The notes under the pieces are model-generated. The model was given only the letters and a program-made list of their open reading frames with translations. It did no database searches and had not been told where the DNA came from. A stretch of DNA of 64,000 nucleotides from Candidatus Bathyarchaeia archaeon (GTDB lineage Archaea; Thermoproteota; Bathyarchaeia; Bathyarchaeales; Bathycorpusculaceae). This document shows positions 11,920-31,058 of this stretch, piece after piece (position 1 is the stretch's first letter; each line of letters starts with the position of its first letter). The position numbers and the translations under genes are program-made. Location: assembly GCA_049515895.1 (NCBI GenBank), contig JBEKTQ010000015.1:1-64000 (forward strand). Direction: 5' to 3'.

Positions 11920-12186
11920 CTAACGCAGAGATGCTTTCGCTCTAAGCGCGAAAACTCGCAGGTCGATTCTTGACGGGCAAACATAAGTGCAGTATCCGCA
12001 GCCCTCACATAAGTCAACCCTAAGCTGCCGCAGCATTTCCTTTTTGCTTTTTTCGAAAGCCTCTTTGATTAAAACTGGACTCAAGTTGTGCGGGCAGGTG
12101 CGCATGCATACGCCGCATCTGATGCAAACGGCAGTTTTGTTTCTTTGCTTTTCAACAGAATTCTCAAGTGTTTGAAAGGTACCCAT
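11920..12186 (-). CDS. 2x[4Fe-4S] ferredoxin resembling the RnfC C-terminal domain
   Basis: CIRCGVCMRTCP and CEGCGYCTYVCPSRIDL. Confidence 0.85.
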   Translation of the reverse strand: MGTFQTLENSVEKQRNKTAVCIRCGVCMRTCPHNLSPVLIKEAFEKSKKEMLRQLRVDLCEGCGYCTYVCPSRIDLRVFALRAKASLR

Positions 12187-12396
12187 TTTTATCCCTTGCA
12201 GAAAGCTGAATCATGAAGGGAAATTATATAGGTTTTTGCTAAAACAAAATTTTCTTGCCTTTTGTATTAGGGAGCAAGAGTGAGGCTTTTCTGCTTCGTC
12301 AAAAACATGTTAACTTAGCATCAAGCGATCTGCTTTTAGCAATGCTTATTACTTATCGCAGGTGATGTTTATCTGTGTAGATTCCGAGGGCTTTTT

Positions 12397-13425
12397 ATGG
12401 CGATTGAGAAAAACCATTTGCTTTATTCTAGAGATTTCCAGTCGTACTGCAGCAACGCCCAGAAAATCATAGATTCTGAACTTCAATCGCTTTTGCCGAC
12501 CATAGCTGAGTTAAAGCTGCGAAAACAAATCGAGTATGCCCTGCAGACCAGTGGGAAAAGGCTTCGGCCTACCTTAGTTATTTTAAGCGGGGAAAGTGCA
12601 GGCGGCAACAGGAGCCAACTCCGAAAATTGGCGTTAGCGTTTGAGCTGCTTCATTTAGCGACTCTTGTTCATGATGACGTTTTGGATGAGGACATGTTTA
12701 GGCGAAACACCCTCTCAGTCTATGCGAAATGGAACGTTAAAGACGCGATTTTGGTAGGCGATGTGTTAGCCTCGCTTTCACTTTCTCTTTGCAAATGGTA
12801 CAGGCGAGAAATCCTCAACGTGATGATAGATACCTGCATTCAACTTTCAGACGGCGAGTATAGAGATGTCGAGCTAGCTGAAAAGGACTTAAACGAGAAA
12901 GAGTACTTTGAAAAAATAAGAAAAAAATGCTCATCGCTTTTCAGAGCAGCCTGTGAATGCGGAGCTCTTGCAGCTAACGGTTCGAGCATCGTGACCGATG
13001 CCATGAGGCTTTTCGGCGAGAACTACGGGGTTGCCTACCAAATAAAAGACGACATATTGGACGCAGAAGAGTGGGGAAACGATCTGCAACCCGACGTTAA
13101 CAAATTCCGAGCCACTCTTCCAATAATACGGGCGTATGAAAGCGCAGACAAAGAAAAGCAAGTGCGGTTCAAAAGGTTGCTTGCTGCAAAAACAGAGAAA
13201 AATCTCAGTGTTTTCTTAAAAGAAGTTCAGGTTTATTTCGAAAAGGATTCTTTAACTTACTGCGCAAACAGAGTAAACGAATTCGTTAATAGGGCGATTA
13301 CAAGTTTGTCTCCATTAAAAGAAACCCGGTTCAAGGGTTACCTCGTGGAGATGGCTGAGTCTTTAAGAGCCAAAGAACCCGAAATCAGCGTCGAGAAGAT
13401 TTTTGCAGAAACGAAGTTCAAATAG
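12397..13425 (+). CDS. Trans-polyprenyl diphosphate synthase, probably long-chain
   Basis: GKRLRP, first aspartate-rich motif ATLVHDDVLD, second motif YQIKDDILD. Confidence 0.92.
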   Translation: MAIEKNHLLYSRDFQSYCSNAQKIIDSELQSLLPTIAELKLRKQIEYALQTSGKRLRPTLVILSGESAGGNRSQLRKLALAFELLHLATLVHDDVLDEDMFRRNTLSVYAKWNVKDAILVGDVLASLSLSLCKWYRREILNVMIDTCIQLSDGEYRDVELAEKDLNEKEYFEKIRKKCSSLFRAACECGALAANGSSIVTDAMRLFGENYGVAYQIKDDILDAEEWGNDLQPDVNKFRATLPIIRAYESADKEKQVRFKRLLAAKTEKNLSVFLKEVQVYFEKDSLTYCANRVNEFVNRAITSLSPLKETRFKGYLVEMAESLRAKEPEISVEKIFAETKFK

Positions 13426-13511
13426 GACTGCTTCACCAGGTTGTTGCCTCGAAAAGCTTTCATTCCTAAGATTTGATTCTCTTAACTCATCTTAGCTTAG
13501 GAAGCCAAAAT

Positions 13512-15005
13512 TTGACTGAAAAATTAGAGATAACGGGTGAAGTATTATCGGACGAAGCCACGTTGAAAGCCTATTCGTTTGACATGAGCCACTATGCAGT
13601 TAAGCCCCAAATGGTTGCGGTCCCAGCAAACGAAGATGACATAGCCAAGCTAATCGCCTTTGCAAAACAGGAATCGATCCCAATAACCCCGAGGGGAGCA
13701 GGCTCAAACCAATCAGGCTCCGCCGTCGGTTCAGGAATAATTGTTCTCTTCTCCAAGATGAACGCAACTGTTAAGAAGGATGGACGAAAGGTTCAGGTGC
13801 AAGCGGGCGTTATCCACCAAGCTCTGGATCTGTATTTGGCCGCGGATGGGCTAAGGATACCCTATGACCCCACTTCCCGGTCGTTTTGCACCATCGGCGG
13901 AAACGTCGCGACCAAGGCAAGTGGGTTAAGAAGCCTAAAGTATGGGACAGTTGATTCGGCGCTGAGAAGCCTGCGTTTTTTTGATGCCGCCCATGGGTTG
14001 ATTGACACTTCAGGATGCTTACCACAAAACGTTGAAGAAGCCGTACTTGAACTAAAAAAACGACTTATCAGCGATAAAGAGGCAATTGGCATCTTGAACG
14101 TCCGAGGCAACCTCAAATCCAGCAGCGGCTATAATCTGTGCAGCCTAATCCAGCACGAGGAGCCAAGCGAAATTGTCACTCACCTTTTAGCAGGTTCAGT
14201 TGGCACGCTGGGTGTTTTCAGCGAAATAGAGTTGGAGGCAGTTCCCATCCCTGAAAGCCGCAAACTATACATCGTATTTTTCCATTCCTTGCAAGAAGCA
14301 GCAGAAGAGGTGGGAAAACTGGTGAACTTCAAACCATCGGCTATTGAACTTATGGACGCTTACGGTGTCGATTTGCTCAAAGCAACAAACAAAGTCAAAG
14401 TGTCTCCTGATTGCAAAGCGGTTCTGTTTGTCGAATTCGACTCCGACTTAGACCAAGCAAGCATCCAGATGGCTAGCTATTTGAAGGGAAAATCAATAAA
14501 ATTCTCAGTCGAAAATAACCCGAAAAAGCAAGATGAACTCTGGAAAATCAGAGAGTCAATGCTGCTTTGGATAATGAATTCGCTGGAAACGCCGCAGAAG
14601 AGATTCCCGCCTTTTGCAGATGACATAGCCGTACCTCTAGGGCAGCTGCCGAATTTCGTTGCTGCCGTTCAGCAGATATTGGCGAGCTTCGGGACGATCG
14701 CAGTGATTTATGGACATGCAGGTGAAGGAAACCTCCACATAAGACCAATGATCAATATTGAGAACTGGGAAGAAAGCCTCAGAAATCTATCAAGCCTTAT
14801 TTTCAACGCAGCCCTGAAAGCAGGCGGAACCATAACGGCCGAGCATGGACTTGGAAGAAACAGGTCCCTGTACCTTCTTAACGAATGGGGAGAAAAGATC
14901 TACCGCTACTTCATGGAAGTCAAAAAGATTTTCGACCCTGTCGGAATCTTGAACCCAGGAGTAGTGTTCACATCGGATGATTTAACAAGAAACCTCAAGC
15001 TATAG
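13512..15005 (+). CDS. FAD-linked oxidoreductase, GlcD/D-lactate dehydrogenase family
   Basis: PRGAGSN, CTIGGNVAT, GSVGTLG, GHAGEGNLH and AEHGLG; TTG start uncertain. Confidence 0.9.
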   Translation: MTEKLEITGEVLSDEATLKAYSFDMSHYAVKPQMVAVPANEDDIAKLIAFAKQESIPITPRGAGSNQSGSAVGSGIIVLFSKMNATVKKDGRKVQVQAGVIHQALDLYLAADGLRIPYDPTSRSFCTIGGNVATKASGLRSLKYGTVDSALRSLRFFDAAHGLIDTSGCLPQNVEEAVLELKKRLISDKEAIGILNVRGNLKSSSGYNLCSLIQHEEPSEIVTHLLAGSVGTLGVFSEIELEAVPIPESRKLYIVFFHSLQEAAEEVGKLVNFKPSAIELMDAYGVDLLKATNKVKVSPDCKAVLFVEFDSDLDQASIQMASYLKGKSIKFSVENNPKKQDELWKIRESMLLWIMNSLETPQKRFPPFADDIAVPLGQLPNFVAAVQQILASFGTIAVIYGHAGEGNLHIRPMINIENWEESLRNLSSLIFNAALKAGGTITAEHGLGRNRSLYLLNEWGEKIYRYFMEVKKIFDPVGILNPGVVFTSDDLTRNLKL

Positions 15006-15186
15006 CCTTCGACAATGGGCGCAATTGTAGTGTGGCAGCTATAGCAAACTCTTAATACCTGAAAAGCTCCCCTTTTAAATGGTGTTCTTGTGCGTTTTCT
15101 AGAGTTAAACTACCGTGAAAGTTCCATAAATCCATGCTTCGTATTAAGCAGGAAAACTCGCACTCGTGAAGCGGGAGCTGATTGAA

Positions 15187-16398
15187 ATGGCAACCCAAAC
15201 TAAAACAGCCACTTCGCCAACCGCTAAAGATACTGGTTTACGCGGAGTTCTTATCGCAGACACGGCAATATCGCTTATCGACGGATTAAAAGGCGAGCTT
15301 TCTTACCGCGGATTTGACATCCACGACCTAGCCGCTTACTCAACAAGTGAAGAAGTCGCCTATCTCCTTTTGTACGGCAACCTGCCGACATCGTCACAAG
15401 CCGAAGAGTTCTCCAAGACGCTCGCAACGCAAAGAAAACTGCCGCCGAGCATAGTTGAAGTTCTCAAAAAGCTTCCCAGCACAGCCACACCGATGGATGT
15501 TTTGCAAGCAATCATACCTTTGCTAGCGGAATCTGACGCCGAAAAGCGCAACGACTCGAAAGAAGCTAACATGAAACGTGCAGCTCGGCTTGTAGCCGTG
15601 TTACCCACCATCGTTGCGTTTTGGGACAGGATCAGAAAAAACCAGTCCCCGGTTGAGCCAGACGCAAAGCTTGGCAGGGCTGCAAATTTTCTTTACATGC
15701 TTACGGGCAAAGAGCCAGACGAAGAGACGGCTAAGGATTTTGACACCTCCCTGGTTTTGCATGCTGAACACTCGTTTAACGCCTCCACCTTTGCCGCAAG
15801 AGTAGTGGCTTCAACACGAGCACACATGTACGCCGCAATAAGCGCTGCGGTTGGGTCTCTTTCAGGCGAGTTACACGGGGGCGCGAACATGCAGGTCATG
15901 CGGAACCTCGTTGAAATCGACGACCCAGACAAAGTTGAACCCTGGGTCAAAGCAAAGTTTGACAATCATGAACGCGTCATGGGCATGGGCCACGCAGTCT
16001 ACAAAGCATTAGACCCCAGAGCTGATTTGCTGCAACACATCTCAGAGAAACTGGCGAGGCGAACAGGCGAGCCGAAATGGTATCTAATTACCAAGGAAAT
16101 CGAGTTTAATACTCAACGCGAATACCGCCAGCGCAAAGGCGGCGAAATCTACCCAAACGTTGACCTGTATAGCGCCTCCGTCTACCACATGCTCGACATC
16201 CCCGACGATCTATTCACGCCCATCTTCGCAATAGCAAGAGTCCCGGGATGGGCGGCACACATAATCGAAGAAAAGTTTCCCGCGCCGCCAATCAAACCTG
16301 AACTTTACCGTCCAAGCGCACAGTACCAAGGCAACTACTGCGGAATCATAGGCTGCAAATACGAACCAATGGCTAATCGGAGCACAGTAAATCAATAG
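15187..16398 (+). CDS. gltA: Citrate / 2-methylcitrate synthase
   Basis: GLRGV, HAEHSFNASTF, LHGGAN, MGMGHAVYK, PNVDLY. Confidence 0.93.
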   Translation: MATQTKTATSPTAKDTGLRGVLIADTAISLIDGLKGELSYRGFDIHDLAAYSTSEEVAYLLLYGNLPTSSQAEEFSKTLATQRKLPPSIVEVLKKLPSTATPMDVLQAIIPLLAESDAEKRNDSKEANMKRAARLVAVLPTIVAFWDRIRKNQSPVEPDAKLGRAANFLYMLTGKEPDEETAKDFDTSLVLHAEHSFNASTFAARVVASTRAHMYAAISAAVGSLSGELHGGANMQVMRNLVEIDDPDKVEPWVKAKFDNHERVMGMGHAVYKALDPRADLLQHISEKLARRTGEPKWYLITKEIEFNTQREYRQRKGGEIYPNVDLYSASVYHMLDIPDDLFTPIFAIARVPGWAAHIIEEKFPAPPIKPELYRPSAQYQGNYCGIIGCKYEPMANRSTVNQ

Positions 16399-16498: not shown

Positions 16499-17233
16499 TT
16501 ATACAGAGCTGCTGCTTTTTGGTCGCAGCTCTTCCATTATTCTTTTTCTAACTTCCAAAATATGCTTAGTAACCTGAATAGCCTTGGGGCAAACCAGCGT
16601 GCATCGATAGTAAGTTTTGCAGCTCCATGTGCCGTGGGGTTTGTCCATAATCTGCAGGCGTTCAATCATGTCTTTAATTCGACTGTCAAAAATGTACCTG
16701 TGTGCGCGAACAATGGCTGCCGGACCTATGTAAGCAGGGTCTTCTTTCTGGCTGACTGGGCAGGCGGAGACACAGCAGGCGCACATTATACATTTTATGT
16801 CATCGTCAAACTGCGACCGCTCCTCAACCGTCTGCTGATGCTCCTTGCCTTCTTCGGTTGTCGTTAAGATTATGCCGTCAGGCGGGTGAACTGATTTTTC
16901 CCTCGCAAAAAATTCATTCAAATCTACCACTAAATCCTTGACAACTGGAAAGACACTCAGAGGCTCGATCAAGATTTCCTTGTCGGCTGGGTAGTCGCTA
17001 ACCAGTTTCTGGCAAGCCAACGCTGAAACCCCGTTAATCGTCATCCCGTCTGAGCCACAGATGCCATGTGCGCAACTCATTCGGTAGGCCAAGCTGCCGT
17101 CTTGTTCCCATCGGACCTTGTTAAGGCAGTCAAGCAGCCTATCTGTCGATTTTGCATCGACGAAAAAATTGTCATAACGGGGTTCCTTGTCGACTTGCGG
17201 ATCGAACCTGAAGATTCTCAACTTAACGTTCAT
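16499..17233 (-). CDS. sdhB: Succinate dehydrogenase/fumarate reductase Fe-S subunit
   Basis: SCAHGICGSD...LAC, CIMCACCVSACP, CKTYYRCTLVCP. Confidence 0.95.
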   Translation of the reverse strand: MNVKLRIFRFDPQVDKEPRYDNFFVDAKSTDRLLDCLNKVRWEQDGSLAYRMSCAHGICGSDGMTINGVSALACQKLVSDYPADKEILIEPLSVFPVVKDLVVDLNEFFAREKSVHPPDGIILTTTEEGKEHQQTVEERSQFDDDIKCIMCACCVSACPVSQKEDPAYIGPAAIVRAHRYIFDSRIKDMIERLQIMDKPHGTWSCKTYYRCTLVCPKAIQVTKHILEVRKRIMEELRPKSSSSV

Positions 17234-17234
17234 G

Positions 17235-18959
17235 CTAATAAGTCCTCGCTTTAGGTTCAAAACGGGTAACAACAACGGGTTTGTACCGCGCTTCAAGTCC
17301 TTTGGCGGTGTGGAAAACAAGTGTGTGTTTTAGCCAAGCTTCGTCGTTGCGGTCGGGAAAATCGTTGCGGTAGTGGGCTCCGCGGCTCTCTTCGCGGTTC
17401 AACGCAGAGTAGACAATAACTTCGGAAAGCTTCAGCATGTTTTCCAGCTCCAGCGCTCCTTCAAGCTCATAGTTGAAACGTCTGCCGCGATAGCTTAGCC
17501 CAAGATTAGCCATTCTACCTTGAAGCGTGTGAATTATCCTCAGCGCTTGCTCCAAACCCGCCTGGTCACGGAAAACGCTGCATAACAGAGTCATCACCTT
17601 TTCCATCTCTTGACGGATCACAGCAACACGTTCCTTCCCAGAAGAAGCTAGAACCGAATCGATTTTTGAAGAAACCAGGCGCTCAACACCCGCGCCAAAC
17701 TGGGTTTGCGGGTTCGCAGCAACGTAATTCGCGATGTGCAAACCTGCCCTTTTTCCGAAGACACCCAAGTCAACCAGCGAATTGGTTCCAAGTCTATTTG
17801 CCCCATGAACGCTTACGCATGCGCATTCGCCTGCAGCGTATAACCCAGGAATAACGGTGGATTTCTCATCTGCCAGAACCCGCGCTTGAGCATCAGTAGG
17901 GATACCACCCATCATGTAGTGACACGTTGGCGCAACAGGAATTGGCGTTTCGCTGGCGTCTATTCCGAGGTAGGTCTTCACAAACGATGTAACTTCCGAA
18001 AGCTTGAGCTGCAACTGGTCTTTTCCAAGATGAGTCAAATCCAAGTAGACATAGTCAGATCCTTCGATGCCTCTGCCTTTCGCGACCTCGGTTAAGATGG
18101 CTCTGGAAATGATGTCTCGTGGCGCAAGATCCTTCAGTGTGGGCGCGTAACGTTCCATAAACCGTTCACCCTTGCCGTTTAGCAGCACGCCACCCTCAGC
18201 TCTGGCTGCTTCGCTGACTAGTATGCCTAAGCGGTGAATACCAGTTGGGTGAAATTGGACGAACTCCATGTCTTCAAGCGGAACACCTGCATCGAACGCC
18301 AAAGCGAAACCGTCTCCCGTGGCGGCAAACGACATCGAAGTGGTTTGGAAGATTCTGCCGCAACCACCGGTAGTCAACAAAACTGCCTTTGCATGGAAAA
18401 CTATCGGTTCCCCTGTGGCCAGCTCGTACCCTAAGACGCCACTGCATTGTCCTTCAGACATTAGAAGTGATGTGATGAAGACTTCGTTGAATATTTTTAC
18501 TTTCCGAACCATACAGTGGTCATAGAGCGTGTCCATAATAACGCGCCCAGTCCTATCTGAGGCGTAGCAGGCCCGCTTGACAGGCGCTTCCCCGAAGTTT
18601 TTAGTGTGCCCGCCGAATCTGCGCTGCTCGATCTTCCCTTTGTCGTTGCGACTGAAGGGAACCCCAAGATGCTCCAGCTCAATCACCCTTGCCGGTGCTT
18701 CCCGAGCCAAGATTTCAGCCACATCCTGATCGGCTAAATAGTCGCTTCCTTTCACCGTGTCGAACATGTGCCATTCCCAATGGTCTTCTTCCTCGTTCCC
18801 AAGAGCTGCCGCAATGCCGCCTTGTGCCGCGCCGCTGTGACTGCGGGAAGCATACACCTTGCTAACTACAGCTGTGTTACATGTTTCTGAAGCCGTCAAG
18901 GCAGCCGTCATGCCTGCGATGCCCGCGCCAACTATTACCACATCAAATTCTTGAATCAT
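17235..18959 (-). CDS. sdhA: Succinate dehydrogenase/fumarate reductase flavoprotein
   Basis: [15 protein letters not shown] (covalent FAD His), QFHPTG, HYMMGG, HGANRLG, ESRGAH. Confidence 0.96.
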
Positions 18960-20242
18960 CCTTGATTTTCACTCTGTCCATTTGAAATTAGAATGTCTCT
19001 ATTGACCTCTTCAAGCGAATCGCAGCAGGTCATAAGCATGGCCATTCGCAAATCGCTCTTCACATAGTTAAGGTACATTGACACTGCTTCAGGTCCGCCA
19101 GCGAGACTCATCCACGCAAGTGGTCTGCCGATTAACACCACGTCAGCTCCTAAAGCCAGCAGCTTGAGAACATCGAAACCTGTTCTCACTGCGCCGTCAG
19201 CCATAATGGTTATTTTTCCTTTGAACTCGTCGACTATTTCGGGCAGGATCTCTGCCACGCCTCTGCCGCAATCCATTACTCTGCCCCCGTGATTGCTGAC
19301 GTCAAGCGCTTTTGCGCCTGAATCAACAACTTTTCCCGCATCCTCTGCATTCATGATTCCCTTGTAGATGATTGGCTTTTCCGTGGCGTCAACCAGTTCT
19401 TTGAGTTCACTTTCGCTTTTGCGGTAAAGCGGCTTACCCCTCAGGGCCCAGTTAGTTGAGCCGTAACCGTCTAAGTCTACGCCAATTCCTAAGACATTGG
19501 CTTGTTCGCATCGCTGAAAAAGGGTTAGAAGACGCTCTTGCGTCTGCGGTTTAAAAACGGGGATGCCCCAACCGCCAAGCCTGCCAATAACGTCTATTCC
19601 AGGGTGATCTGGCGCATCAACAGTGTGGCCGCTTAACCCAATGGTGCCTGCCTGTTTAGCTCCTTCTACCATGCCTCTCTGAAATTCCGATTCGCTTAAC
19701 GCGTTATTCATGCTTATGACCGTCCCGCTGAAGCTTGTCGCCAAAACTGGAAAAGCAATCTTATTGCCCAGAAAAACCGTTTCTAAAATTGGTTCACTAT
19801 GCTCTCTGATTACCTTCATATTTAGCTTGTACCGTGACAGAGCTTGAAAGTTCGCACTCCACGTTTGGCCTTGCCCCGCGCCTCCGAAGCCGACGGGTTT
19901 ACCGTACTTCATTCCTTGACAGAGCCGGTCAGAGTCTCCGTCACAGACCTTGTTTACCGCACAAACTCTAGCGAGCTGTTTTCTAGCGATGTCACGATAG
20001 TAGGCAATATCTTTTAGTGGCTTTTCACTTGTCGGCGGATAGTTTTTTTCGTATTTTGTCCTTGCAGAGGCGTATTCTTGATCACTGATTTCCACGAGGT
20101 TGCCTTTCCAATGTCCGCAGACCGGGCAACGCCACGCTTCAGCAATTTTCTCCAACCTTATTCCCAAAGGCAGTTCTGCCCCTAGATCACCTTTTTCCTC
20201 GTCAAAAGTGAAACTGCCGCAAAATCCGCATATGAACTTCAA
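18956..20242 (-). CDS. Rubredoxin fused to FMN-dependent alpha-hydroxy-acid dehydrogenase (LldD/glycolate oxidase family)
   Basis: N-terminal CGFCG...WRCPVCG; [20 protein letters not shown]. Confidence 0.9.
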
Positions 20243-20433
20243 GAGACAACCTCTCTACGAAACTAATCTTACAAATTACTTTAGACTCATATTAATTCGA
20301 AGTTTACCGTTTCTAAAAAACTTTTGCAACTCGGCGGAAAGAGAGTTGCAGTTGGAAACACTTAAATCATCGCTTTAAACCCATTCTTATTGATGACATT
20401 CTTCATCCTTTTTCTTAAGAGGAAGTTTTGTTT

Positions 20434-22178: not shown

Positions 22179-22460
22179 TATTTTCACCTCCCTGCCGGCA
22201 GTAGAGGAAGATGAATTGCAGTTGTTGCAGACCTGTGTCATGACTGCAAGTTTCAGCAGAGGAGAAAGAATAGAACTAAATCCGCCTTTAATTCATGATT
22301 CGAGGCGTGGCTCAGGATACTAAGTTGGAGCTTACGAGACTGAAATTCCTTAAATTCAGCGCTATTATCAGGCAAGGGTTTGATCAATAGTCTAGTCAAA
22401 TGTTTCCTATCTATTAAGATTTCTGCATTAAGATTTCTTGAAGCAGGGAGGACAATCTGC

Positions 22461-23816: not shown

Positions 23817-23946
23817 TTACACAAATCTCCTTTCAACTGTCCAATTTAGTTAAACTTGTTGAAGCAATAAAACTTGCCCCGCGAGGTCCACTTAATCAAG
23901 CTGAAAAAATTCTTATGCTGCGACTGCCACCTAGCTATTGGTTATT

Positions 23947-25086
23947 TTGAACTTAACTGAGAATGAAGCTAAGCAGGTGTTTGTTAAGTACGGTATTCCA
24001 ATTCCGAAAGGCATGTTGATCGCTGATTCCAAGCAAACCGCAGAAGCCGTAATCAACCTGAAGCCGCCTTACATGGTTAAGGCGCAAGTTCCCGCAGGTG
24101 GAAGAGGAAAAGCTGGAGGAATCATACCTGCCTCATCAATGCACGAGGCAGAAGAAGTCGCTGCCAAACTTCTTGGAGCACAAATAAAGAACCTTCCCGT
24201 CAAGAAAGTTCTAATCGAGGAAAAGCTGCCAGTAAAGAAAGAATTGTACTTTGGCATCACAGTCGACCGATTTAACCGTAGCTACGTTGCTTTAGCTTCA
24301 GGAATGGGCGGAGTAGAAATCGAAGAAGTAGCCGAGAAAACGCCTAAAGCCATCGTAAGGACCATTATTGATTTTCAATTGGGCATGCGTGCTTTTCAAG
24401 CATTAGCAGTGGCTAAGCAATTAGGCTACGGCGGAAGCCAACTTCTCGAATTGTCAGGTATTATTCAGAAACTTTATCAAGCATGCGTTGAAAGCGACGC
24501 TGAAATGGCGGAGATTAATCCCTTGGTGGAAACGGATGTTGGAAGTTTTGTGGCTGCTGACGCTCGAATGGTAATTGATGATAACGCGCTGTTTAGGCAT
24601 CCGGAGTATGAGGCAAATGAAGTTCAAATGCTTTCGCCTGCGGAAGCTTTTGCTTCAAGGAATAATTTGGCTTACGTTAAGCTTGAGGGTGACATAGGGG
24701 TCGTCGGAAACGGCGCTGGGTTGGTAATGGCAACGCTCGATCTCCTGACTTTTTTCGGCGGCAAACCCGCGAATTTTTTAGATGTAGGCGGCGGAGCAAA
24801 TATGGAAGCGATCAGGGCGGCTTTAGAAATCGTCCTCAGCGACCCAGATACAAAAGCAGTTTTGGTCAACGTTCTTGGCGGGATAACGCGTTGTGATGAG
24901 GTTGCAAGAGGCATAGTTGAAGCCCTCAAAGACACCAAGGCGAGGAAGCCGTTGGCTGTTAGACTAGTTGGCACAAACCAGATGGAAGGACAAAAAATTC
25001 TCTCTGATGCTGGCATAAGCGTTTTAGATAGCATGGAGAAAGCGGCAAGACGGGCAGTTGAGTTTGCGGCGGAGGAAAAGCGGTAA
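23947..25086 (+). CDS. sucC: Succinyl-CoA synthetase beta subunit
   Basis: VKAQVPAGGRGKAGG, EINPL, GNGAGLVMAT, PANFLDVGGGA, GGITRCD. Confidence 0.95.
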   Translation: MNLTENEAKQVFVKYGIPIPKGMLIADSKQTAEAVINLKPPYMVKAQVPAGGRGKAGGIIPASSMHEAEEVAAKLLGAQIKNLPVKKVLIEEKLPVKKELYFGITVDRFNRSYVALASGMGGVEIEEVAEKTPKAIVRTIIDFQLGMRAFQALAVAKQLGYGGSQLLELSGIIQKLYQACVESDAEMAEINPLVETDVGSFVAADARMVIDDNALFRHPEYEANEVQMLSPAEAFASRNNLAYVKLEGDIGVVGNGAGLVMATLDLLTFFGGKPANFLDVGGGANMEAIRAALEIVLSDPDTKAVLVNVLGGITRCDEVARGIVEALKDTKARKPLAVRLVGTNQMEGQKILSDAGISVLDSMEKAARRAVEFAAEEKR

Positions 25087-25964
25087 TGGGAATTTTGGTT
25101 GACTCGAACACCAGAGCTATTGTTCAAGGTATCACTGGCAAACAAGGCAGCTACCAGACTAAACTTATGCTCGAATACGGCACGAAAATTGTTGCGGGAG
25201 TCGTCCCTGGCAAAGGTGAAACCAAAGTCAACGGATTGCCCGTTTTTGACACTGTAAGTGAGACTTTCGATGATTATTCACCCAATGCTTCGATAATTTT
25301 TGTGCCTGCGCAATTTGCGCATGACGCTGTTTTAGAAGCGATTGCCAACAAAATCAAAACAATCGTCGTAATTACTGAACATTTACCCATTAGAGACACA
25401 ATAAATATCATGTTGTATGCGGCTCAATCGCAGGTTACGGTTATTGGTCCGAACACCCCAGGAATCATCACTCCCGGTGAATGCAAGCTTGGAATAATGC
25501 CAGCCGACGTTTTTGCGTCCGGCGGCGTAGGTTTGGTCTCAAGAAGCGGTACACTCACATACGAAATAGCCGCTGGGCTTACAGCCAAGGGTTTCGGGCA
25601 GTCAACCTGCGTCGGCGTCGGTGGCGACCCCGTCGCGGGCTTAAACTTCATTGAGGCCCTAGAACTGTTTAATGCTGACTCGAAAACGAAGGCTGTGGTT
25701 CTAATCGGCGAAATCGGTGGCAACATGGAAGAGCTAACGGCACAGTACATTGCCCAGACACACTATCCTAAGCCGGTTGTGGCTTACGTGGCTGGCCGTT
25801 TTGCACCAGAAGGCAAGCGCATGGGCCACGCGGGAGCTATCATAACGGGTAAGCAGGGGACGGCCCAAAGCAAGATTGACGCGTTTTCAAGCGTTGGAGT
25901 GAAGGTTGCTGAAATGCCAAGCGATGTTGCAGCTTTGTTGATCAATGAACTTGGGCATCCCTAA
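25086..25964 (+). CDS. sucD: Succinyl-CoA synthetase alpha subunit
   Basis: [32 protein letters not shown] (phospho-His). Confidence 0.96.
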
Positions 25965-26096
25965 AAAACAAGTTACCGATAACTGTGTCGTTGAGCCCAA
26001 GCGCCAACTTGGGTTCCAAAAGATTTATCTTTAAACCTAAACAGACTACTAGATGACTGCCATGTTTTGAGCAGTTTTTTAGAGCGAGACGTTTTT

Positions 26097-27053
26097 ATGA
26101 GCCAGAATAACTCCAGAAAAATTAGTTCCGAAGACCTTAAGCAGTTCGATGGGTCAAATGGAAAACCTTTATACGTTGTTTTCAAGGGCAAAATATACGA
26201 CTTGACAACCAGCCAGCTTTGGCTTGAAGGCAAACACATGGGCATGCACGGCAGAACCGACGATTTAACTGAAGCAATAAAAACCGCTCCGCATGGCGAA
26301 GACAACGTTTACAGATTCCCGATTGTCGGCGAAATTGCCGAAGCGGTTATGCAGGCTCCAGTTGCCACGCCTGCAGTGGAAAAGCCTGTTGAGCCCCAAG
26401 TTCAGCCCGTAATCGGCACTTCTCCCGCAGTCATGGAGAGACGCACGTTCCTAAAGCTGGCAGCGGCGGCGGGAGGAGCAATAACGATCGCGGCACTGTT
26501 TTCAACCCTAAAAGCTGGAACTTTTGTGCCACCGCCGACCGCAACAGCAGCTTGGCCTGTGGTCACCGTTACAAACATAGGTAAGTTGACAAATCTCACA
26601 CCAATAGTGTTCTATTACCCTTTAACCAGCACACCGAATTACCTTGTTAAGTTAGGGGTGGCAGCCACAGGTGGCATCGGACCTGAAAAAGACATAGTGG
26701 CCTTCAGCGCGATTTGCCAGCACTTGGGATGCGAGTACGGTTTCGTGGCTCCAGGCGGCTCACCACCCTGCAACTCCGCTTATAAGGTGGCTATTCCTAT
26801 GGGCTACTGCTGCTGCCACGGCTCACAGTACGATTTCGTTCGTGGCGCGAAGGTGATTGGAGGCCCAGCTCCACGACCTGTGCCTATGGTTCAACTACAA
26901 CTGAATTCAGCAACAGGAGATATAACCGCTGTTGGGATGCAGTCGCCAACGATTTTTGGGCATGGGCCGCCTGGAACCATGGATCCCGCGTTGGTTATGC
27001 AGTATGATTTGCAGGGTGGAGATTTAGTGACGCAATCCACTGTTTTGGGATGA
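26097..27053 (+). CDS. Cytochrome b5-like domain + Tat anchor + Rieske [2Fe-2S] protein (SoxL/AioB-like)
   Basis: LKQFDG..GKPLYV.FKGKIYDLT..W.EGKH...APHG (b5-like); MERRTFLK plus TM helix; CQHLGC and CCCHGSQYD; GPAPRP. Confidence 0.9.
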   Translation: MSQNNSRKISSEDLKQFDGSNGKPLYVVFKGKIYDLTTSQLWLEGKHMGMHGRTDDLTEAIKTAPHGEDNVYRFPIVGEIAEAVMQAPVATPAVEKPVEPQVQPVIGTSPAVMERRTFLKLAAAAGGAITIAALFSTLKAGTFVPPPTATAAWPVVTVTNIGKLTNLTPIVFYYPLTSTPNYLVKLGVAATGGIGPEKDIVAFSAICQHLGCEYGFVAPGGSPPCNSAYKVAIPMGYCCCHGSQYDFVRGAKVIGGPAPRPVPMVQLQLNSATGDITAVGMQSPTIFGHGPPGTMDPALVMQYDLQGGDLVTQSTVLG

Positions 27054-27060
27054 CTTGATT

Positions 27061-28578
27061 ATGTCTGAAGAAATTGAGAAGAAGAATGCTTATGACAAAC
27101 TTGTCGACTGGTTTGACGTGAAGTTCGGCTTCGCTAAGACTCCGCTTAAGCCGATTCCAGACTTTATGATGAACCCGATTTATTGGCTTGGCTTGCTGTT
27201 AGCGGTGACTTTCGGCTTGCAGGCTTTAACCGGGATCTTCATGCTTCTCTACTACGTCCCCACGCCTGCCCAAGCCTTCTCGTCGACAGCATCGATTATC
27301 AGTTCGGTGCCTCTTGGCTCGCTTGTTGAAACCTTCCACCTGTACACCGCCTACGCCATGATTATCTTAATGTTTTTGCATTTGGTCCGCAACTTTTTCG
27401 GCAGCGCACATAAAGGCAACAGGGATTTGATGTGGCTTGTCGGAATCGTATTAGCCGTCGTGGTGATTAGCTTCGGCGTGACAGGGTACCTTTTGCCGTG
27501 GACGGTGATTTCTAAGTCTGCAAGCGACGTCGCCATCGGATTCCTAAACTTCTTCCCGGTTGGAATTGCAAACCTGGGAAAGTTCGTGGCGGTAGGCTCC
27601 GGCAGCGATGCATCGGAGTTGACAACTTTCCTTCACATCCACACCGTTTTCCTTCCATTGGCGTTGATCGGGCTTTTAGGGTTGAAGATTTACATGTACG
27701 AGGTCCACGGCCCAATGTATGTGCCAGCATACGGGAAACCTGGAAAAGGCAAGTACAATAATTGGTTCCCAAAAATCTTCCTCTACTTTGTCATGCTTGC
27801 AAGCGCTTACGTGGCGATTTTGCTGGCTGCATCTTCTCTTTTCCCGCTTTCCTTGCCGCCTGCATACTCCGCGGCCACAGCCGGTGCCTACGTCGTCCAG
27901 CCTGATTGGTATCTGCTTTGGGTTTATCAACTCTTGAAAATCCAAGTTTTTGAAGGACCCGCAGCAGCTTACTTGATAGCTGCGCTGATTGCTTTCGGAG
28001 TGCTTCTTTTCCTTATGCCTTTCTACGACCGAAGCAAACGAAGAAACATCAGCCAAAGACCAGTCTACACTACAATCGGCTCGGTGCTAATAATTGAGCT
28101 TATTACGCTAACCATTTGGGGATACTTGACTCCTGGAATAATAATCCCAGACTACCAAGCCGTTTTGGTTTTAGGCGGAGTAGCTGTCGCAACTATCGCT
28201 GTGATATGGGCCGTTTATAGAATTAGACGAAAAACAAACGCAGCATCTATGCTGCCCGCGCAATCGACCACTAACTCCCTCTCAACCAACTCATCTGGAA
28301 CGAGTCCTGCCTCCATAGTGCAGGCATCTGCTCAACCTAAGAAACAAAGGGTCAAGCTAGCTGGTCAGAGCCTATTCAATCCGTTCACTGCTGTCTTCGC
28401 AATTTTCCTTGCGGTTGCATCAGTTTCTTTAGCATCAGCCGTAAACATGCTACCCACCATCTTGGCGAACGGACCGTTTTTTGCCTTGGCTCTGAGCGCT
28501 TTTGCCGTTTCGTCTTTTTTCATGTGTCGGATGCTTCGGAAGTTTGTTTTATCGTATGAGGGAGCGGTGGCTAAATAA
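27061..28578 (+). CDS. Cytochrome b of a Rieske/cytochrome b complex (fused b6 + subunit IV type, extra C-terminal helices)
   Basis: QALTGIFMLLYYVP, H-x13-H in helix B, TGYLLPW, QPDWY (PEWY equivalent), PFYDRS...RP. Confidence 0.92.
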   Translation: MSEEIEKKNAYDKLVDWFDVKFGFAKTPLKPIPDFMMNPIYWLGLLLAVTFGLQALTGIFMLLYYVPTPAQAFSSTASIISSVPLGSLVETFHLYTAYAMIILMFLHLVRNFFGSAHKGNRDLMWLVGIVLAVVVISFGVTGYLLPWTVISKSASDVAIGFLNFFPVGIANLGKFVAVGSGSDASELTTFLHIHTVFLPLALIGLLGLKIYMYEVHGPMYVPAYGKPGKGKYNNWFPKIFLYFVMLASAYVAILLAASSLFPLSLPPAYSAATAGAYVVQPDWYLLWVYQLLKIQVFEGPAAAYLIAALIAFGVLLFLMPFYDRSKRRNISQRPVYTTIGSVLIIELITLTIWGYLTPGIIIPDYQAVLVLGGVAVATIAVIWAVYRIRRKTNAASMLPAQSTTNSLSTNSSGTSPASIVQASAQPKKQRVKLAGQSLFNPFTAVFAIFLAVASVSLASAVNMLPTILANGPFFALALSAFAVSSFFMCRMLRKFVLSYEGAVAK

Positions 28579-29231
28579 TGAAGCGTGACTTTGACTCTTT
28601 GCGTGTCACTGCCTATTTCCTTTTGGTTTTTCTAATTGTTGTTGGAGTGGCAGTTTGGCTTTTGAACCTAATCAGTCAACAAAGGATTTTCGGTTTCTTG
28701 ATGGGCGCTGAATTCGTTGCGTTCGCCATGCTCGTCTACCTTTTTTACATGGAAGACCCCGTAGCCGCCAAGAAAATATTATTCTCGGGGTTCGTTGCCT
28801 TAGGAATCCTAGTTGTATTAGCGGCTGCCGTTTTAGGAGGCATTGGTACACCTGCGACGTTGCCCAAACCCAATGTCTCAGTAACCCTCTACGCGGGGGA
28901 AGTTTCTCTTACACAGTACGGGTTCGGCAACGACGCAATCTCCATAACTTCGCCGGGTCCGACTTTAACCTTCACCGTTGGCGATGTTGTGAACATGACC
29001 GTTTTCAACGCGGGAACCATGCCTCATAATTGGGCGCTAGTCGCTTCCAAGGATACCTCAGGCAAAGTTCTGTTCGGCGCAGTAATCGACAGCGGTCAAG
29101 TCCCCATACCGCCTAACGAAACAGCATCGGTTGTTTTTAGAGTCACAAAATCGGGGAACTACTTCTACATTTGTCAGGTTGCGGGTCACGTTCAGTCAGG
29201 CATGTGGGGTAATGTGGTAGTGAATCCGTGA
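28578..29231 (+). CDS. Membrane-anchored (3 TM) blue copper protein, sulfocyanin/rusticyanin-like
   Basis: PGPTL...MPHNW...YICQVAGHVQSGMWG gives the type-1 Cu ligand set H/C/H/M. Confidence 0.9.
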   Translation: MKRDFDSLRVTAYFLLVFLIVVGVAVWLLNLISQQRIFGFLMGAEFVAFAMLVYLFYMEDPVAAKKILFSGFVALGILVVLAAAVLGGIGTPATLPKPNVSVTLYAGEVSLTQYGFGNDAISITSPGPTLTFTVGDVVNMTVFNAGTMPHNWALVASKDTSGKVLFGAVIDSGQVPIPPNETASVVFRVTKSGNYFYICQVAGHVQSGMWGNVVVNP

Positions 29232-30013
29232 CACAAAAAATCGCTGAAGAATTTTCTGCCTCGTGCCTATTTTTCTTTGCAAGCTTGCTCACTGGCCTAG
29301 TAAGCGTCATGGCGTTGAGTTTTGTTTGGGCAAAACAAAGAGCCGAAAAGCAACTTGAACCCCAAAAAACAGCGGGTTTCCTTGCCAATGAGCAAAGAGC
29401 ACTGAATTTTTACAAAATATTTTCCTTTGCCTACGACATTTTGAACCCGTACCTGTATACTGATGCCATGCGCAGCGAAATTGTAAATCAAATCGAAAAC
29501 GGCGCAAACCAGCGGGTGCTTGACGTCGGATGCGGAACAGGCTACACCACGTCAGGAGTTTTGAAGCGGAAAGACGTTTCGGAGGTTGTCGGTTTGGACA
29601 TGAATCCCGTACAACTAAAAAGAGCCGTCAAGAACCTGCACTCAGAAAAGGGGAGAACGCTTATTTCAAGAGGCGACGCGGACAACTTGCCGTTCATCGA
29701 CTCGTCTTTCGACGCGGTAATTTCTGTTGGAGCCGTCGAGTATTTTCAAGACCCTGAAAAAACGGTGAAAGAGCTGACTAGGGTCGCAAGACCTGGTGGA
29801 ACCGTGATTGTGGGCGGTCCTGAATCGAGATGGTTCAGCAAGTTTGCTTTAAACAGGGTTTTCTATACGCCCTCACCCGAGGAAATGGAGAGTATTTTCG
29901 GCAAAGCGGACCTTGTCAGGGTGAAATCCCACTTGACGGGCGTGAAAACTTTTTTCGGAACAAACAAATACGTCGTGTTTGCAGTAGGGAAGAAACCAGA
30001 AAGCCCACGGTGA
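29228..30013 (+). CDS. Prenylquinol C-methyltransferase (MenG/UbiE, VTE3-like)
   Basis: FYKIFSFAYDILNPYLYTDAMR, VLDVGCGTG, GDADNLPF...SFD; N-terminal TM; faces the menA-like gene. Confidence 0.75.
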   Translation: MTQKIAEEFSASCLFFFASLLTGLVSVMALSFVWAKQRAEKQLEPQKTAGFLANEQRALNFYKIFSFAYDILNPYLYTDAMRSEIVNQIENGANQRVLDVGCGTGYTTSGVLKRKDVSEVVGLDMNPVQLKRAVKNLHSEKGRTLISRGDADNLPFIDSSFDAVISVGAVEYFQDPEKTVKELTRVARPGGTVIVGGPESRWFSKFALNRVFYTPSPEEMESIFGKADLVRVKSHLTGVKTFFGTNKYVVFAVGKKPESPR

Positions 30014-30026
30014 AAGGCAGCGAAAC

Positions 30027-31058
30027 TTAAGCTCTTTTTCTTGTATTAAGCAGTGTCCAAGCTACCGGGGCATAAGCAGCCACCAACACCCCCAAGATGT
30101 AGGCGAGTTGAACTGGGTTGGCCATGTTCAAGATCCCTGCGACTGAGTAGCCTGCGATTAAACCGAAGCTGGTGACGCTGTGTGCCACTATCATATCGAG
30201 GTTAGCGGGAGCCATCAGCCGCGGGTTATCTTTATGCGCCCGAACGACCCTGATCGAGCGGATCACGAGGGGCAGTGAGAGCAAAGCGAAAAGTGTGTAG
30301 AGCGGTATGATGCCCAGCAAAGCGGAAGCAACGATTATGGCGTAAGTGCATATCCAACTCGCCACGTAAAGTTTGACGCCTGCCTCTTTGCCGTACCTTG
30401 CGACAAGCGTGAGTTTCCCGGCAGCCGTGTCCTCTGCGATATCGGGAATCTCGTTTATCACAATCATCGAGAACAGCATTACCCCCAAAGGCAAAGTCGC
30501 CAAAAACGCCTGCAGGGTCAGGGTTTGTGCTTGAACGTAAAAGGCGCCTAAACCTATTATTGAGCCAAAATTCACCAGTAGGGCAAGCTCGCCCAGCCCG
30601 TGGTGGCTGAAGCTTATGGGTGGAGCGGTGTAGAAGACAGCGCAAAATACGCCGAATACCCCGAATGCCAAGATAGGTAAGCCCCGGGTTAACGTTAGGT
30701 ATAACCCCACAGCCAAAGTGACTAGGTAGCAGAGCGTGAAAGCTTTAAACATGCTCCTAGGCGCCAGAAGCCCGTTGCTCAGGGTCCCGCTGCCGCCCGA
30801 ATACGGGTTCTTCTCGCCCGGCCCAAGCGTGTCCACGCTGTGCTTGTAGTCGAAGTAGTCGTCGGTCATGTTTAAGCCGATGTGATTGATGATAATGGCA
30901 ACGAGCACAAGCAGAAAATAAAGCGGGGAAAACCCACTTTTAGTTGCCCAGCTAACTAAGCCGCCTAGGACAGCGGGAAAGATGCTGGGAGGAACAAAGT
31001 GGTAGCGGAAGGCGAGCCACCAGACTTTCGCTTTACTTGTTTTAGGTATGAACGTCAT
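30027..31058 (-). CDS. menA: 1,4-dihydroxy-2-naphthoate polyprenyltransferase (MenA/UbiA family)
   Basis: NMTDDYFDYKHSVD, YSGGSG, YTAPP...GLGE, NEIPDIAEDTAAGKLTL. Confidence 0.88.
   Translation of the reverse strand: MTFIPKTSKAKVWWLAFRYHFVPPSIFPAVLGGLVSWATKSGFSPLYFLLVLVAIIINHIGLNMTDDYFDYKHSVDTLGPGEKNPYSGGSGTLSNGLLAPRSMFKAFTLCYLVTLAVGLYLTLTRGLPILAFGVFGVFCAVFYTAPPISFSHHGLGELALLVNFGSIIGLGAFYVQAQTLTLQAFLATLPLGVMLFSMIVINEIPDIAEDTAAGKLTLVARYGKEAGVKLYVASWICTYAIIVASALLGIIPLYTLFALLSLPLVIRSIRVVRAHKDNPRLMAPANLDMIVAHSVTSFGLIAGYSVAGILNMANPVQLAYILGVLVAAYAPVAWTLLNTRKRA

Follow-up and report, generated by a model that had tools for sequence, protein, structure and literature searches.

Background

Among the closest described counterparts of the system analysed here is the soil genus Houtuousia (order Houtuarculales, GTDB o__40CM-2-53-6), (micro)aerobic Bathyarchaeia of soil (Hou et al. 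2023, PMC10321748). In the available text of that paper they possess cytochrome c oxidases and the tricarboxylic acid (TCA) and glyoxylate cycles, and lack the Wood-Ljungdahl pathway and pyruvate:ferredoxin oxidoreductase (PFOR); a 2025 review repeats this. A 2025 peat study assigns a potential ability to respire oxygen, sulfite and nitrite to one FEN-987 metagenome-assembled genome (MAG), in one sentence of its available text. Here we describe a block of 17 open reading frames (ORFs) that separates the genes for ribosomal protein S19e (rps19e) and the RNA-binding protein YhbY (yhbY) in a stretch of 64,000 nucleotides from a Candidatus Bathyarchaeia archaeon (contig JBEKTQ010000015.1, positions 1 to 64,000; hereafter "the window"). 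We read this block as a composite respiratory and TCA-cycle gene cluster in a rearrangement hot spot, inherited vertically within one sub-clade and then lost or trimmed, and feeding an aerobic electron transport chain, with a probability of about 0.65.

Sulfolobales and Nitrososphaeria use copper carriers in place of cytochrome c. Their chains (SoxM/SoxABCD type with sulfocyanin in the Sulfolobales) and the present one have in common an A-type oxidase, carriers of the blue copper type and a Rieske protein paired with a long cytochrome b. NCBIfam gives SoxC, SoxL2 and sulfocyanin/rusticyanin as top matches, but all Sox equivalogs stay far below cut-off, and the cytochrome b is only 38-50% identical to those of Nitrososphaerales, Methanodesulfokora and Thermoprotei. 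Unlike the Sulfolobales and Nitrososphaeria chains, the present locus exhibits a clade-specific, putatively cytochrome b5-like extension of the Rieske protein, and its complex III genes are clustered with quinone-tailoring genes.

The site itself resembles another known system. Bacterial genomes possess integration hot spots between core genes, and the S19e-YhbY junction shares with such hot spots and genomic islands a fixed pair of core genes and a variable cargo, including prophage, transposase and defence genes. It differs from them in that the window copy has no integrase, tRNA gene or att-like repeat, and in that the cargo of the sub-clade is core energy metabolism co-diverging with its flanks. 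Finally, lactic acid bacteria and Streptococcus agalactiae respire when haem and a quinone (or its precursor) are supplied, according to the available text of two papers (PMC11220326, PMC6030563).

Results

The window corresponds to the first 64 kb of contig C15 of a MAG of 3.18 Mb, 53 contigs and a GC content of about 0.44 (G000; other G numbers denote comparison genomes, and L numbers loci). An ORF listing with Pfam and NCBIfam profile searches of the window proteins shows that 17 ORFs at 11920-31058 separate rps19e from yhbY. They constitute a genuine, coherent, quinone-centred respiratory gene set composed of four modules: ferredoxin and polyprenyl synthase; citrate synthase-SdhBA-LldD-like-ComA-like-PrpD; SucCD; and Rieske-cytochrome b-blue copper protein-methyltransferase-MenA-like. 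The block and its flanks are as follows (coordinates in the window, strand, product, and profile scores in bits, against the model cut-off where given).

10328..10804, minus: ribosomal protein L31e, flank (PF01198, 35 bits, residues 68-147; ORF call probably over-extended at the N-terminus)
10820..10978, minus: basic ORF of 52 amino acids (aa) at the L39e position, flank (assignment made solely from its size, composition and position)
10983..11312, minus: PDCD5-like dsDNA-binding protein, flank (PF01984, 89.7 bits)
11318..11866, minus: ribosomal protein S19e, left edge of the hot spot (PF01090, 167.9 bits; in 92/101 genus genomes)
11920..12186, minus: 2x[4Fe-4S] ferredoxin (Fer4 families; loci L009, L018, L029)
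12397..13425, plus: polyprenyl diphosphate synthase, side-chain supply (PF00348, 183.7 bits; all NCBIfam equivalogs below cut-off)
13473..15005, plus: GlcD-like FAD-linked 2-hydroxyacid dehydrogenase/oxidase (PF01565 and PF02913; glcD equivalog below cut-off)
15166..16398, plus: citrate synthase / 2-methylcitrate synthase type II (TIGR01800, 437.9 vs 421.3)
16499..17320, minus: SdhB, succinate dehydrogenase iron-sulfur subunit (NF004616, 270 vs 228)
17235..18959, minus: SdhA, succinate dehydrogenase flavoprotein (TIGR01816, sdhA_forward, 771.4 vs 727.35)
18956..20242, minus: rubredoxin plus FMN-dependent 2-hydroxyacid dehydrogenase, LldD-like (PF00301 and PF01070)
20428..21270, plus: putative ComA-family (phosphosulfolactate synthase-like) protein (PF02679, 207 bits; arch_ComA 69.8 vs 280)
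21363..22241, minus: 292-aa membrane protein (no Pfam family matched; three transmembrane helices predicted from hydropathy)
22461..23816, minus: MmgE/PrpD-family dehydratase (PF03972 and PF19305; PrpD equivalogs below cut-off)
23938..25086, plus: SucC, succinyl-CoA synthetase beta (NF001913, 441.5 vs 370)
25086..25964, plus: SucD, succinyl-CoA synthetase alpha (NF004230, 402.4 vs 336)
26067..27053, plus: Rieske iron-sulfur protein with a predicted N-terminal cytochrome b5-like domain and an internal twin-arginine signal/anchor (PF00355, 22.2 vs 20.3)
27055..28578, plus: long cytochrome b (PF00033, 100.7 bits, and PF00032, 42.1 bits)
28578..29231, plus: membrane-anchored type-1 (blue) copper protein, sulfocyanin/plastocyanin-like (cupredoxin families including PF06525 and PF00127)
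29228..30013, plus: UbiE/MenG-like class I S-adenosylmethionine-dependent methyltransferase with one N-terminal transmembrane helix (PF01209, 50.7 vs 20.1)
30027..31058, minus: MenA-like UbiA-family prenyltransferase (PF01040, 79.5 vs 34.2)
31227..31526, minus: YhbY/CRS1 RNA-binding protein, right edge of the hot spot (PF01985, 62.5 bits; in 91/101 genus genomes)
31489..31848, minus: RNase P subunit Rpr2/Rpp21 (rnp4), flank (PF04032, 69.6 bits)

An earlier reading made from the sequence alone (the sequence-only reading) had counted 16 genes here, the ComA-family gene and the 292-aa membrane protein not being on its list. It had correctly placed the block between S19e and YhbY, with PDCD5, L39e and L31e on one side and Rpr2/rnp4 on the other; the gene identities support its description of a coherent quinone-centred respiratory set, and the Pfam and repeat searches uphold its statement that no integrase or boundary repeats are visible in the window.

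The citrate synthase is a single-copy gene with no paralogue found in the genome, and the polyprenyl synthase has a paralogue, 47% identical, on contig C9. The ferredoxin is the most persistent resident of the junction, being kept without the rest of the block in G051, G019 and G020; the GlcD-like gene occurs only in genomes with the full block. The 292-aa membrane protein also exhibits a Ser/Thr-rich linker and a beta-rich C-terminal domain, with paralogues on contigs C5, C49, C40, C19 and C1; it appears to be accessory, being absent from G064 and from the corresponding module of G053, G016 and G105. The stop codon of the LldD-like gene overlaps the sdhA start by 4 nt, so that this gene is probably co-translated with sdhAB; it adjoins SdhA in relatives too. 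The rubredoxin-FMN fusion is located directly upstream of SdhA wherever the module occurs (L162, L164, L165, L166), and may be a functional partner of SdhAB. For some questions we searched five genomes, three bearing the Rieske gene (G000, G064, G053) and two without it (G101, G051), and counts "of 5" refer to these. For a possible methylcitrate-cycle role of the citrate synthase and PrpD, a PEP-mutase/PrpB-type match was found in 0/5 genomes.

In Bathyarchaeia the spacing between the S19e and YhbY genes is usually about 100-250 bp. Outside the genus of the window, 50 Bathyarchaeia genomes have both genes on one contig (paired by hand among the matches listed, a subset that lacks 39 S19e matches). 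The spacing is shorter than 400 bp in 37 of them and 1.7-2.2 kb in six, and the genes are far apart or inverted in the remaining seven. Given this tight pairing in 37/50 genomes, the split observed here is more than a chance arrangement. The genus itself was sampled with 101 genomes, namely the window's own and 100 other species drawn from a still larger set. Among the 68 with both flanks on one contig, the gap is 56-971 bp in 35, 1.4-8 kb in 19 and 18-24 kb in seven (window included), with the flanks rearranged or far apart in another seven. The gap may be empty, or contain a ferredoxin alone, a small copper protein or pieces of the block; other cargo includes a terminase large subunit, DNA methylases, MazE, transposases, AAA_14/DUF4143, XPB with DUF790, hemerythrin and shikimate kinase. 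With a gap ranging from 56 bp to about 24 kb and contents that differ among relatives, the S19e-YhbY junction is in this genus a hot spot for insertion and rearrangement. No integrase or recombinase (Pfam), tRNA gene (ARAGORN) or att-like flanking repeat was found at the block borders, the repeat search returning short chance-level repeats only and none pairing both junctions.

Several individual junctions deserve description. The gap of about 24 kb in G113 (L146/L147, G113:C113:13200-38300) contains a polyprenyl synthase, two ArsR regulators, FrhB-like and HdrABC/MvhD-like genes, a complete 11-subunit Nuo/Fpo-like (complex-I-like) operon, an MFS transporter and a UbiE methyltransferase, and in G108 that polyprenyl synthase is likewise the first gene of a gap of similar size. 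In this other branch of the genus the site is occupied by energy-metabolism genes of another kind. In G204, which belongs to another family, a 19.6-kb defence-type island lies between YhbY and S19e (L177, G204:C3:68400-88399), with genes for a helicase, a KAP NTPase, GmrSD, Schlafen-like/AlbA_2 and AbiEi/AbiEii; the Cox operon, a CtaB-like gene, Rieske and cytochrome b of the same genome form one cluster elsewhere (L178). The G079 junction (L126, G079:C3:796200-802700) exhibits a terminase large subunit, a DNA methylase and a MazE-like gene, and looks like a prophage remnant; its YhbY is matched in two overlapping pieces, suggesting a frameshift. In G081 the S19e and YhbY genes are 971 bp apart on its contig C16, and its C15 has a second, partial YhbY beside a Rieske/cytochrome b/UbiA mini-block. 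This second copy may represent either a variant strain within the bin or a duplication of the junction.

The full block, in the same order and at the same site, is found in the closest species (G064, G092, G115) and in named Bathyarchaeia contigs (L036-L039). Elsewhere its modules occur separately. The Rieske-cytochrome b-copper protein-methyltransferase-UbiA module is alone at the site, preceded by a ferredoxin or a prenyl synthase, in five genomes (G053, G105, G107, G016, G004); SdhAB with SucCD is alone there in G101 and G110, and ferredoxin with SucCD in G094. The citrate synthase-SdhBA-LldD-like-ComA-like-PrpD unit is found on another contig, with its internal order kept, in G053, G016 and G105, and in G105 a distance of 2.7 kb separates it from the oxidase operon. 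In G094 a single contig, distinct from the site, carries the oxidase, methyltransferase-UbiA, prenyl synthase, the citrate synthase-to-PrpD unit and Rieske-cytochrome b-copper protein. Signs of decay are also present: the UbiA gene is split in G115, G016 and G081, and G063 retains only a 74-aa UbiA fragment beside YhbY. The Rieske/cytochrome b part is present in 14/101 genus genomes, in 0/16 genomes of the family's other genera and in 0/16 of the order's other families. The MenA-like gene is present in all 14 cytochrome-b genomes and one other (15/101), and SdhA homologues, in two identity classes, in 61/101.

A tree of 80 cytochrome b sequences places the window protein in a clade of 23 rows (100*) with a long stem, 21 of which are labelled Bathyarchaeia. 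Its sisters are two further Bathyarchaeia rows, after which Bathyarchaeia and Nitrososphaerales are interleaved. Among 200 other genomes sampled across the class, the top cytochrome b from beyond the genus reaches 52% identity. The named close homologues of cytochrome b, SdhA and Rieske are from Bathyarchaeia MAGs, except for two bacteria-labelled rows, which we take for mislabels; the "Limnocylindrales" contig among them exhibits the same archaeal gene order as the block. The homologue names and the cytochrome b tree both support Bathyarchaeia as the host lineage. The 120 best SdhA homologues in the database form a continuum of 66-100% identity, every named one being from Bathyarchaeia. A bacterial origin of SdhA was considered on the basis of an Atlas feature search, which puts bacterial clusters first and gives no alignment, and appears less likely in view of this continuum among the 120 best homologues.

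The identity levels of cytochrome b and of the flank proteins are correlated (r = 0.88, for 45 non-independent pairs from 10 genomes). In a flank-protein tree (478 columns, quick search, mostly unstarred branches), 12/12 cytochrome-b-positive rows fall within a 97* clade of 28 rows, against 0/22 outside it. The full-block genomes cluster there with G101 (SdhAB and SucCD only) and G051 (ferredoxin only), which is best read as losses in the latter two. The conserved order and site in the nearest species, together with the co-divergence of cytochrome b, thus point to vertical inheritance within the sub-clade followed by repeated loss and trimming. As the Rieske/cytochrome b part is confined to 14/101 genus genomes and was found in neither outside sample, its acquisition at the base of the sub-clade is plausible. 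In our reading the Rieske/cytochrome b/quinone module entered, or was kept only in, one sub-clade, from an unsampled Thermoproteota-type source; the remainder of the block is an older property of the lineage, and the species group of the window then gathered the modules into the hot spot.

The Rieske ORF probably starts at the ATG at 26097. It exhibits a twin-arginine translocation (Tat) signal (TIGR01409, 20.7 vs 16.7) and the cluster boxes CQHLGC and CCCH, as expected of a Tat-exported Rieske protein adjacent to its cytochrome b, and TatC is encoded on contig C13. The AlphaFold2 model of the Rieske domain has a pLDDT of 83-96, with Foldseek matches to the arsenite oxidase subunit AioB (TM 0.86) and the Rieske II protein SoxF of Sulfolobus. 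The N-terminal domain is modelled at a pLDDT of about 47-73, and the Foldseek matches concern the Rieske domain only. We predict that this N-terminal domain is cytochrome b5-like from a PF00173 match of 21.1 bits, under the cut-off of 23.7 in the window protein, and from the precomputed PF00173 matches and names of homologues. The 120 best-listed homologues are mostly 312-328 aa long and 56-92% identical, and several of those listed carry PF00173 or the name "cytochrome b5 domain-containing protein". H47, H51 and H66 are invariant in 34 aligned sequences. The extension appears limited to the 23-row cytochrome b clade, as judged from the spans of the aligned segments. A cytoplasmic cytochrome b5-like domain on the Rieske anchor could act as an extra electron gate on the N-side.

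The cytochrome b has its N- and C-terminal domains fused, with about 10 transmembrane helices by hydropathy, and its best NCBIfam match is SoxC, below cut-off. This two-domain protein carries a Qo motif, PDWY, at P283-D284-W285-Y286; in 80 aligned rows P and W are present in 80, Y in 79, and the second position is D in 63 and E in 17. The PDWY form has been tied to menaquinol-oxidising, low-potential systems in the available text of Kao and Hunte (PMC4122944). Of the haem ligands, H95/H109 and H196 are present, and K211 aligns to the fourth histidine of cytochrome b6. K211 is invariant (80/80 rows) and H218, seven residues on, is present in 79/80, Nitrososphaerales included; either of the two may be the ligand of haem bH. 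A "missing fourth histidine" as a trait of this locus was therefore rejected, K211 being family-wide in the 80 archaeal rows; the available text of Kao and Hunte (PMC4122944) reports a loss of the fourth haem ligand only for Pyrobaculum. The blue copper protein exhibits three N-terminal transmembrane helices and a C199/H204/M209 ligand spacing, and is the probable electron acceptor of the Rieske centre.

Other components of a chain are encoded elsewhere in the genome. An A-type heme-copper oxidase is encoded on contig C18 (C18:17473-20914) by a single operon, CoxII-CoxI-CoxIII-CoxIV (PF00115, 434.6 bits; PF00116, PF00510, PF03626), with two more cupredoxins and a CtaB-like UbiA protein, directly beside an A-type ATP synthase operon. 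Contig C6 has an FpoF-like gene followed by an 11-subunit complex-I-like operon. For complex II, the flavoprotein and iron-sulfur subunits both pass their equivalog models (TIGR01816, 771 vs 727; NF004616, 270 vs 228). TatC is found in the three Rieske-bearing genomes (G000, G064, G053), and was not found in the two without Rieske (G101, G051). Cytochrome bd was not found in G000, and among the five genomes only in G053. COX1 is present in 11/14 of the cytochrome-b genomes. Class-wide it is concentrated in another family, f35, where it is near-universal (20/22 at E<=0.001, 18 over cut-off), whereas it is patchy in the genus of the window (38/101) and was found in 0/16 genomes from the other genera of its family. 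By our count, 27 of the 38 oxidase-bearing genus genomes have neither cytochrome b nor the MenA-like gene.

The anaerobic genes are retained. CdhC and POR_N are found in 5/5 genomes, G000 having three POR-family loci as well as Hdr/[NiFe]-hydrogenase clusters. On the oxidative side, aconitase-family genes are present too. By its gene content, the genome would thus encode a complex I/II/III/IV-type aerobic chain in addition to genes for acetyl-CoA synthase, PFOR and Hdr/hydrogenase, and given these retained genes the organism is probably a facultative (micro)aerobe.

Discussion

In the mechanism that we propose, SdhAB, the two 2-hydroxyacid dehydrogenases and the complex-I-like enzyme of contig C6 would reduce a quinone of menaquinone type, for which the block would supply side-chain synthesis, prenylation and methylation. 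The Rieske/cytochrome b pair would oxidise the quinol, and electrons would pass via the membrane-anchored blue copper protein to the A-type heme-copper oxidase of contig C18. The resulting proton gradient would drive the neighbouring A-type ATP synthase.

A number of observations weigh against this reading. The membrane anchor subunits SdhC/D (PF01127) are found in 0/5 genomes, so that we do not count the coupling of succinate dehydrogenase to the quinone as proven. The operon in the window consists of LldD-like, SdhA and SdhB only, and the genome's CCG proteins are encoded within Hdr/hydrogenase clusters. Two candidate anchors were rejected: a CCG/HdrB-like protein on contig C8 belongs to an HdrBC-[NiFe]-hydrogenase cluster, and the 292-aa membrane protein is missing in G064 and does not accompany the Sdh module in G053, G016 and G105. 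No quinone head-group pathway was found, MqnA/D (PF02621) and MenB (TIGR01929) each being present in 0/5 genomes; as controls, these models match in 4 and 11 of 14 named genomes, respectively. The MenA-like protein scores below the MenA models (closest, TIGR00751 menA, 100.1 vs 102.15), and the methyltransferase reaches 65.8 with TIGR01934 against a cut-off of 158. With Mqn and MenB not found and the MenA and MenG models unreached, the menaquinone-type quinone itself is a conjecture. The chain needs haem, and yet ALAD and HemC were not found in G000, and among the five genomes only in G053. In the genus ALAD is found in 57/101 genomes, and is missing from 8/14 cytochrome-b genomes and, by our count, from 20/38 with the oxidase. 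G000 lacks any homologue of the nine-gene hem cluster seen in G053 and G092; its homologue of the gene upstream of that cluster is on contig C21, with no hem genes after it. CtaA was found in 0/5 genomes, a result that is uninformative, the Sulfolobus control being silent too. A gene not found in a MAG is not thereby proven missing, even when the MAG is rated 100% complete.

The distribution and composition data add to these difficulties. COX1 is far more widespread in the genus (38/101) than cytochrome b (14/101) or the MenA-like gene (15/101), so the oxidase does not require the module of the block. On the flank tree, which is short and has few starred branches, the presence of cytochrome b needs 9 changes, against a shuffled mean of 10.9; the trait is thus labile, and this weak tree leaves room for exchange of the block among close relatives. 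The GC content of the block is 0.479, against 0.443 +/- 0.020 for genome windows of the same size (98.8th percentile), which could reflect a foreign origin or merely conserved enzyme genes; its tetranucleotide distance is unremarkable (82nd percentile of genome windows). There is no RNA run among the listed holders of window positions 24000-32000, and the listed runs holding the stretch are peat and wetland metagenomes. We infer the quinone, its link to succinate dehydrogenase and the supply of haem alike, and the chain probably relies on salvage of haem and of a naphthoquinone precursor, or else on pathways still to be discovered.

Different explanations of the locus have to be weighed against the preferred one. 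It is hardly credible that the junctions are an assembly or binning chimera joining the contig of a respiring organism to a Bathyarchaeia ribosomal string, even though the MAG consists of 53 contigs with an estimated contamination of 4.9% and includes small GC-rich contigs, one of them with an unrelated cytochrome b. Unitigs of run X1 span 11809-15989 (S19e/ferredoxin junction) and 30390-31462 (UbiA/YhbY junction) with zero differences, a unitig of run X2 bridges 30387-31462, and the depth stays even over all 20 kb; run X3, which comes from an independent study, covers all 30 bins. These checks bring the coverage test that the sequence-only reading had proposed for both junctions to a result contrary to a chimera. 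As X1 and X2 may be the source samples, the independent evidence is the occurrence of the same junctions in other genomes and named contigs, to which the co-divergence of block and flanks may be added. The sequence-only reading itself favoured a largely self-contained island, probably acquired. In its strong form, a recent transfer into this genome from an unrelated respiring organism, this is very improbable. The hypervariable site with mobile or defence genes in other genomes, the high GC content, the patchy cytochrome b and the bacterial clusters returned for SdhA by the Atlas feature search, the last a lead only, would all suit it. However, the nearest species and four named Bathyarchaeia contigs show this order at this site, cytochrome b has diverged in parallel with the flanks (r = 0.88) within a Bathyarchaeia-specific clade whose next relatives are Bathyarchaeia and Nitrososphaerales rather than bacteria, SdhA is found in 61/101 genus genomes and belongs to a Bathyarchaeia continuum, and neither integrase, tRNA gene, boundary repeat nor tetranucleotide bias marks the block. 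Nor is it self-contained: the oxidase, the complex-I-like operon, TatC and the ATP synthase are encoded elsewhere, and neither a head-group pathway nor SdhCD nor tetrapyrrole synthesis came to light. That no terminal oxidase is visible is true of the window, and a genome-wide search for heme-copper oxidase and Tat genes located the Cox operon on C18 and TatC on C13. What stands of the proposed acquisition is the island-like variable site between flanks that are normally neighbours (37/50 genomes outside the genus), the minority distribution of one part and a plausible entry at the base of the sub-clade. The contrary case, vertical inheritance in a known respiring lineage, also holds in part, inheritance being vertical-looking within the sub-clade and respiring soil and peat Bathyarchaeia having been published.

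A role in anaerobic metabolism or protection is another explanation, which we consider rather unlikely. SdhAB would then be a menaquinol:fumarate reductase, and the Rieske/cytochrome b/copper proteins with the oxidase would chiefly remove oxygen on behalf of an oxygen-sensitive acetogen, or feed other acceptors. CdhC, the three POR-family loci and the Hdr/[NiFe]-hydrogenase clusters are kept, the metagenomes holding the sequence are from peat and wetland, haem synthesis was not found, and a PDWY-type low-potential quinol oxidase fits menaquinone, which is also used in fumarate respiration. On the other hand, SdhA passes the "forward" equivalog (771 vs 727) and is far below the fumarate reductase models, the operon of the four-subunit A-type oxidase adjoins that of the ATP synthase, citrate synthase, SucCD and aconitase-family genes speak for an oxidative cycle, and COX1 accompanies cytochrome b in 11/14 genomes. 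The composite cluster feeding an aerobic chain thus remains our preferred reading.

A bolder version of this preferred reading is put forward tentatively, and we consider it somewhat unlikely as a whole: a facultative aerobe living on borrowed cofactors, which would combine the acetyl-CoA pathway with a full complex I/II/III/IV-type chain, the quinone-dependent core of the latter residing in a hot-spot cassette. Such a cassette would be easily lost, trimmed or swapped among species, and respiration would be switched on only where neighbours supply haem and a naphthoquinone precursor. The likeness is to lactic acid bacteria, mainly fermentative organisms in which respiratory enzymes accompany incomplete cofactor pathways; here a prenyl synthase, a MenA-like protein and a methyltransferase are found without Men/Mqn, HemB or HemC. 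Unlike the bd oxidase and NDH-2 of those bacteria, the present set is of complex I/II/III/IV type and in an archaeon, with the salvage suggested by absences in a MAG.

The organism resembles the Houtuousia, as presented in the available text on them, as one of the soil Bathyarchaeia with a heme-copper oxidase and a fairly complete TCA cycle, read there as an adaptation to (micro)oxic soil. Unlike the Houtuousia, which in that text have isocitrate lyase and malate synthase and lack the H4MPT Wood-Ljungdahl pathway and PFOR, the genomes analysed here retain CdhC and POR (5/5 each), on which ground membership in the Houtuousia was rejected; a PEP-mutase/ICL-superfamily match was found in 0/5. With the MAG of the 2025 peat study, as far as its available text goes, it shares a peat origin and oxygen respiration beside anaerobic options. 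The available text of PMC10321748 does not mention "quinone" or "terminal oxidase", these being the terms searched, to the exclusion of Rieske, complex III and gene placement; the available main text of the peat study has no "cytochrome c oxidase", "terminal oxidase", "complex III" or "heme-copper". In the literature searched we found no Bathyarchaeia quinone/complex III module, no placement of one in the ribosomal string and no report of the missing cofactor pathways, a search that stops short of the supplements of PMC10321748, which may list some of the genes. Respiration genes in Bathyarchaeia are thus already known; new are the facultative genus, the modular cassette in a hot spot and the possible cofactor salvage.

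The searched literature credits oxygen respiration to one soil genus, from which the Wood-Ljungdahl pathway has been lost, and, in a single sentence, to one MAG from peat. The present data add a second, species-rich peat and soil genus, with a heme-copper oxidase in roughly one species out of three, and a sub-clade that would combine the whole chain with the anaerobic machinery. Modules in a rearrangement hot spot, together with their repeated loss, offer a system for the study of gain, consolidation and loss of aerobic respiration in a lineage generally regarded as strictly anaerobic. Since synthesis of haem and of the quinone head group is apparently lacking, we predict that cofactor cross-feeding controls respiration, which, if true, matters for the design of enrichments and for carbon turnover where oxic and anoxic peat meet.

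Additional observations

Five small contigs of the MAG (C48 and C50-C53; 2.7-3.7 kb) have a GC content of 0.55-0.60, against 0.44 for the rest, and are likely bin contaminants; C52 encodes a cytochrome b only 30% identical to that of the window (L004 = C52:1-2127). The contig of the window begins inside an archaeal 16S rRNA gene (window 1-325, minus strand, model positions 1-301), the rRNA operon being cut by the assembly. A stretch of about 1.6 kb (3469-5089), between a Cbf5/TruB-like gene cluster and a DUF1622 gene, has no ORF of at least 80 aa, a GC content of about 0.39-0.41 and no Rfam match at the gathering threshold. At the other end of the window, positions 41000-61000 follow a run of nucleotide-sugar/polysaccharide genes and have a GC content of 0.371, against the genome mean of 0.443. 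In GC and tetranucleotide distance this is the most extreme window of the genome at the 19-kb scale, and it is probably a recently acquired surface-glycan island.

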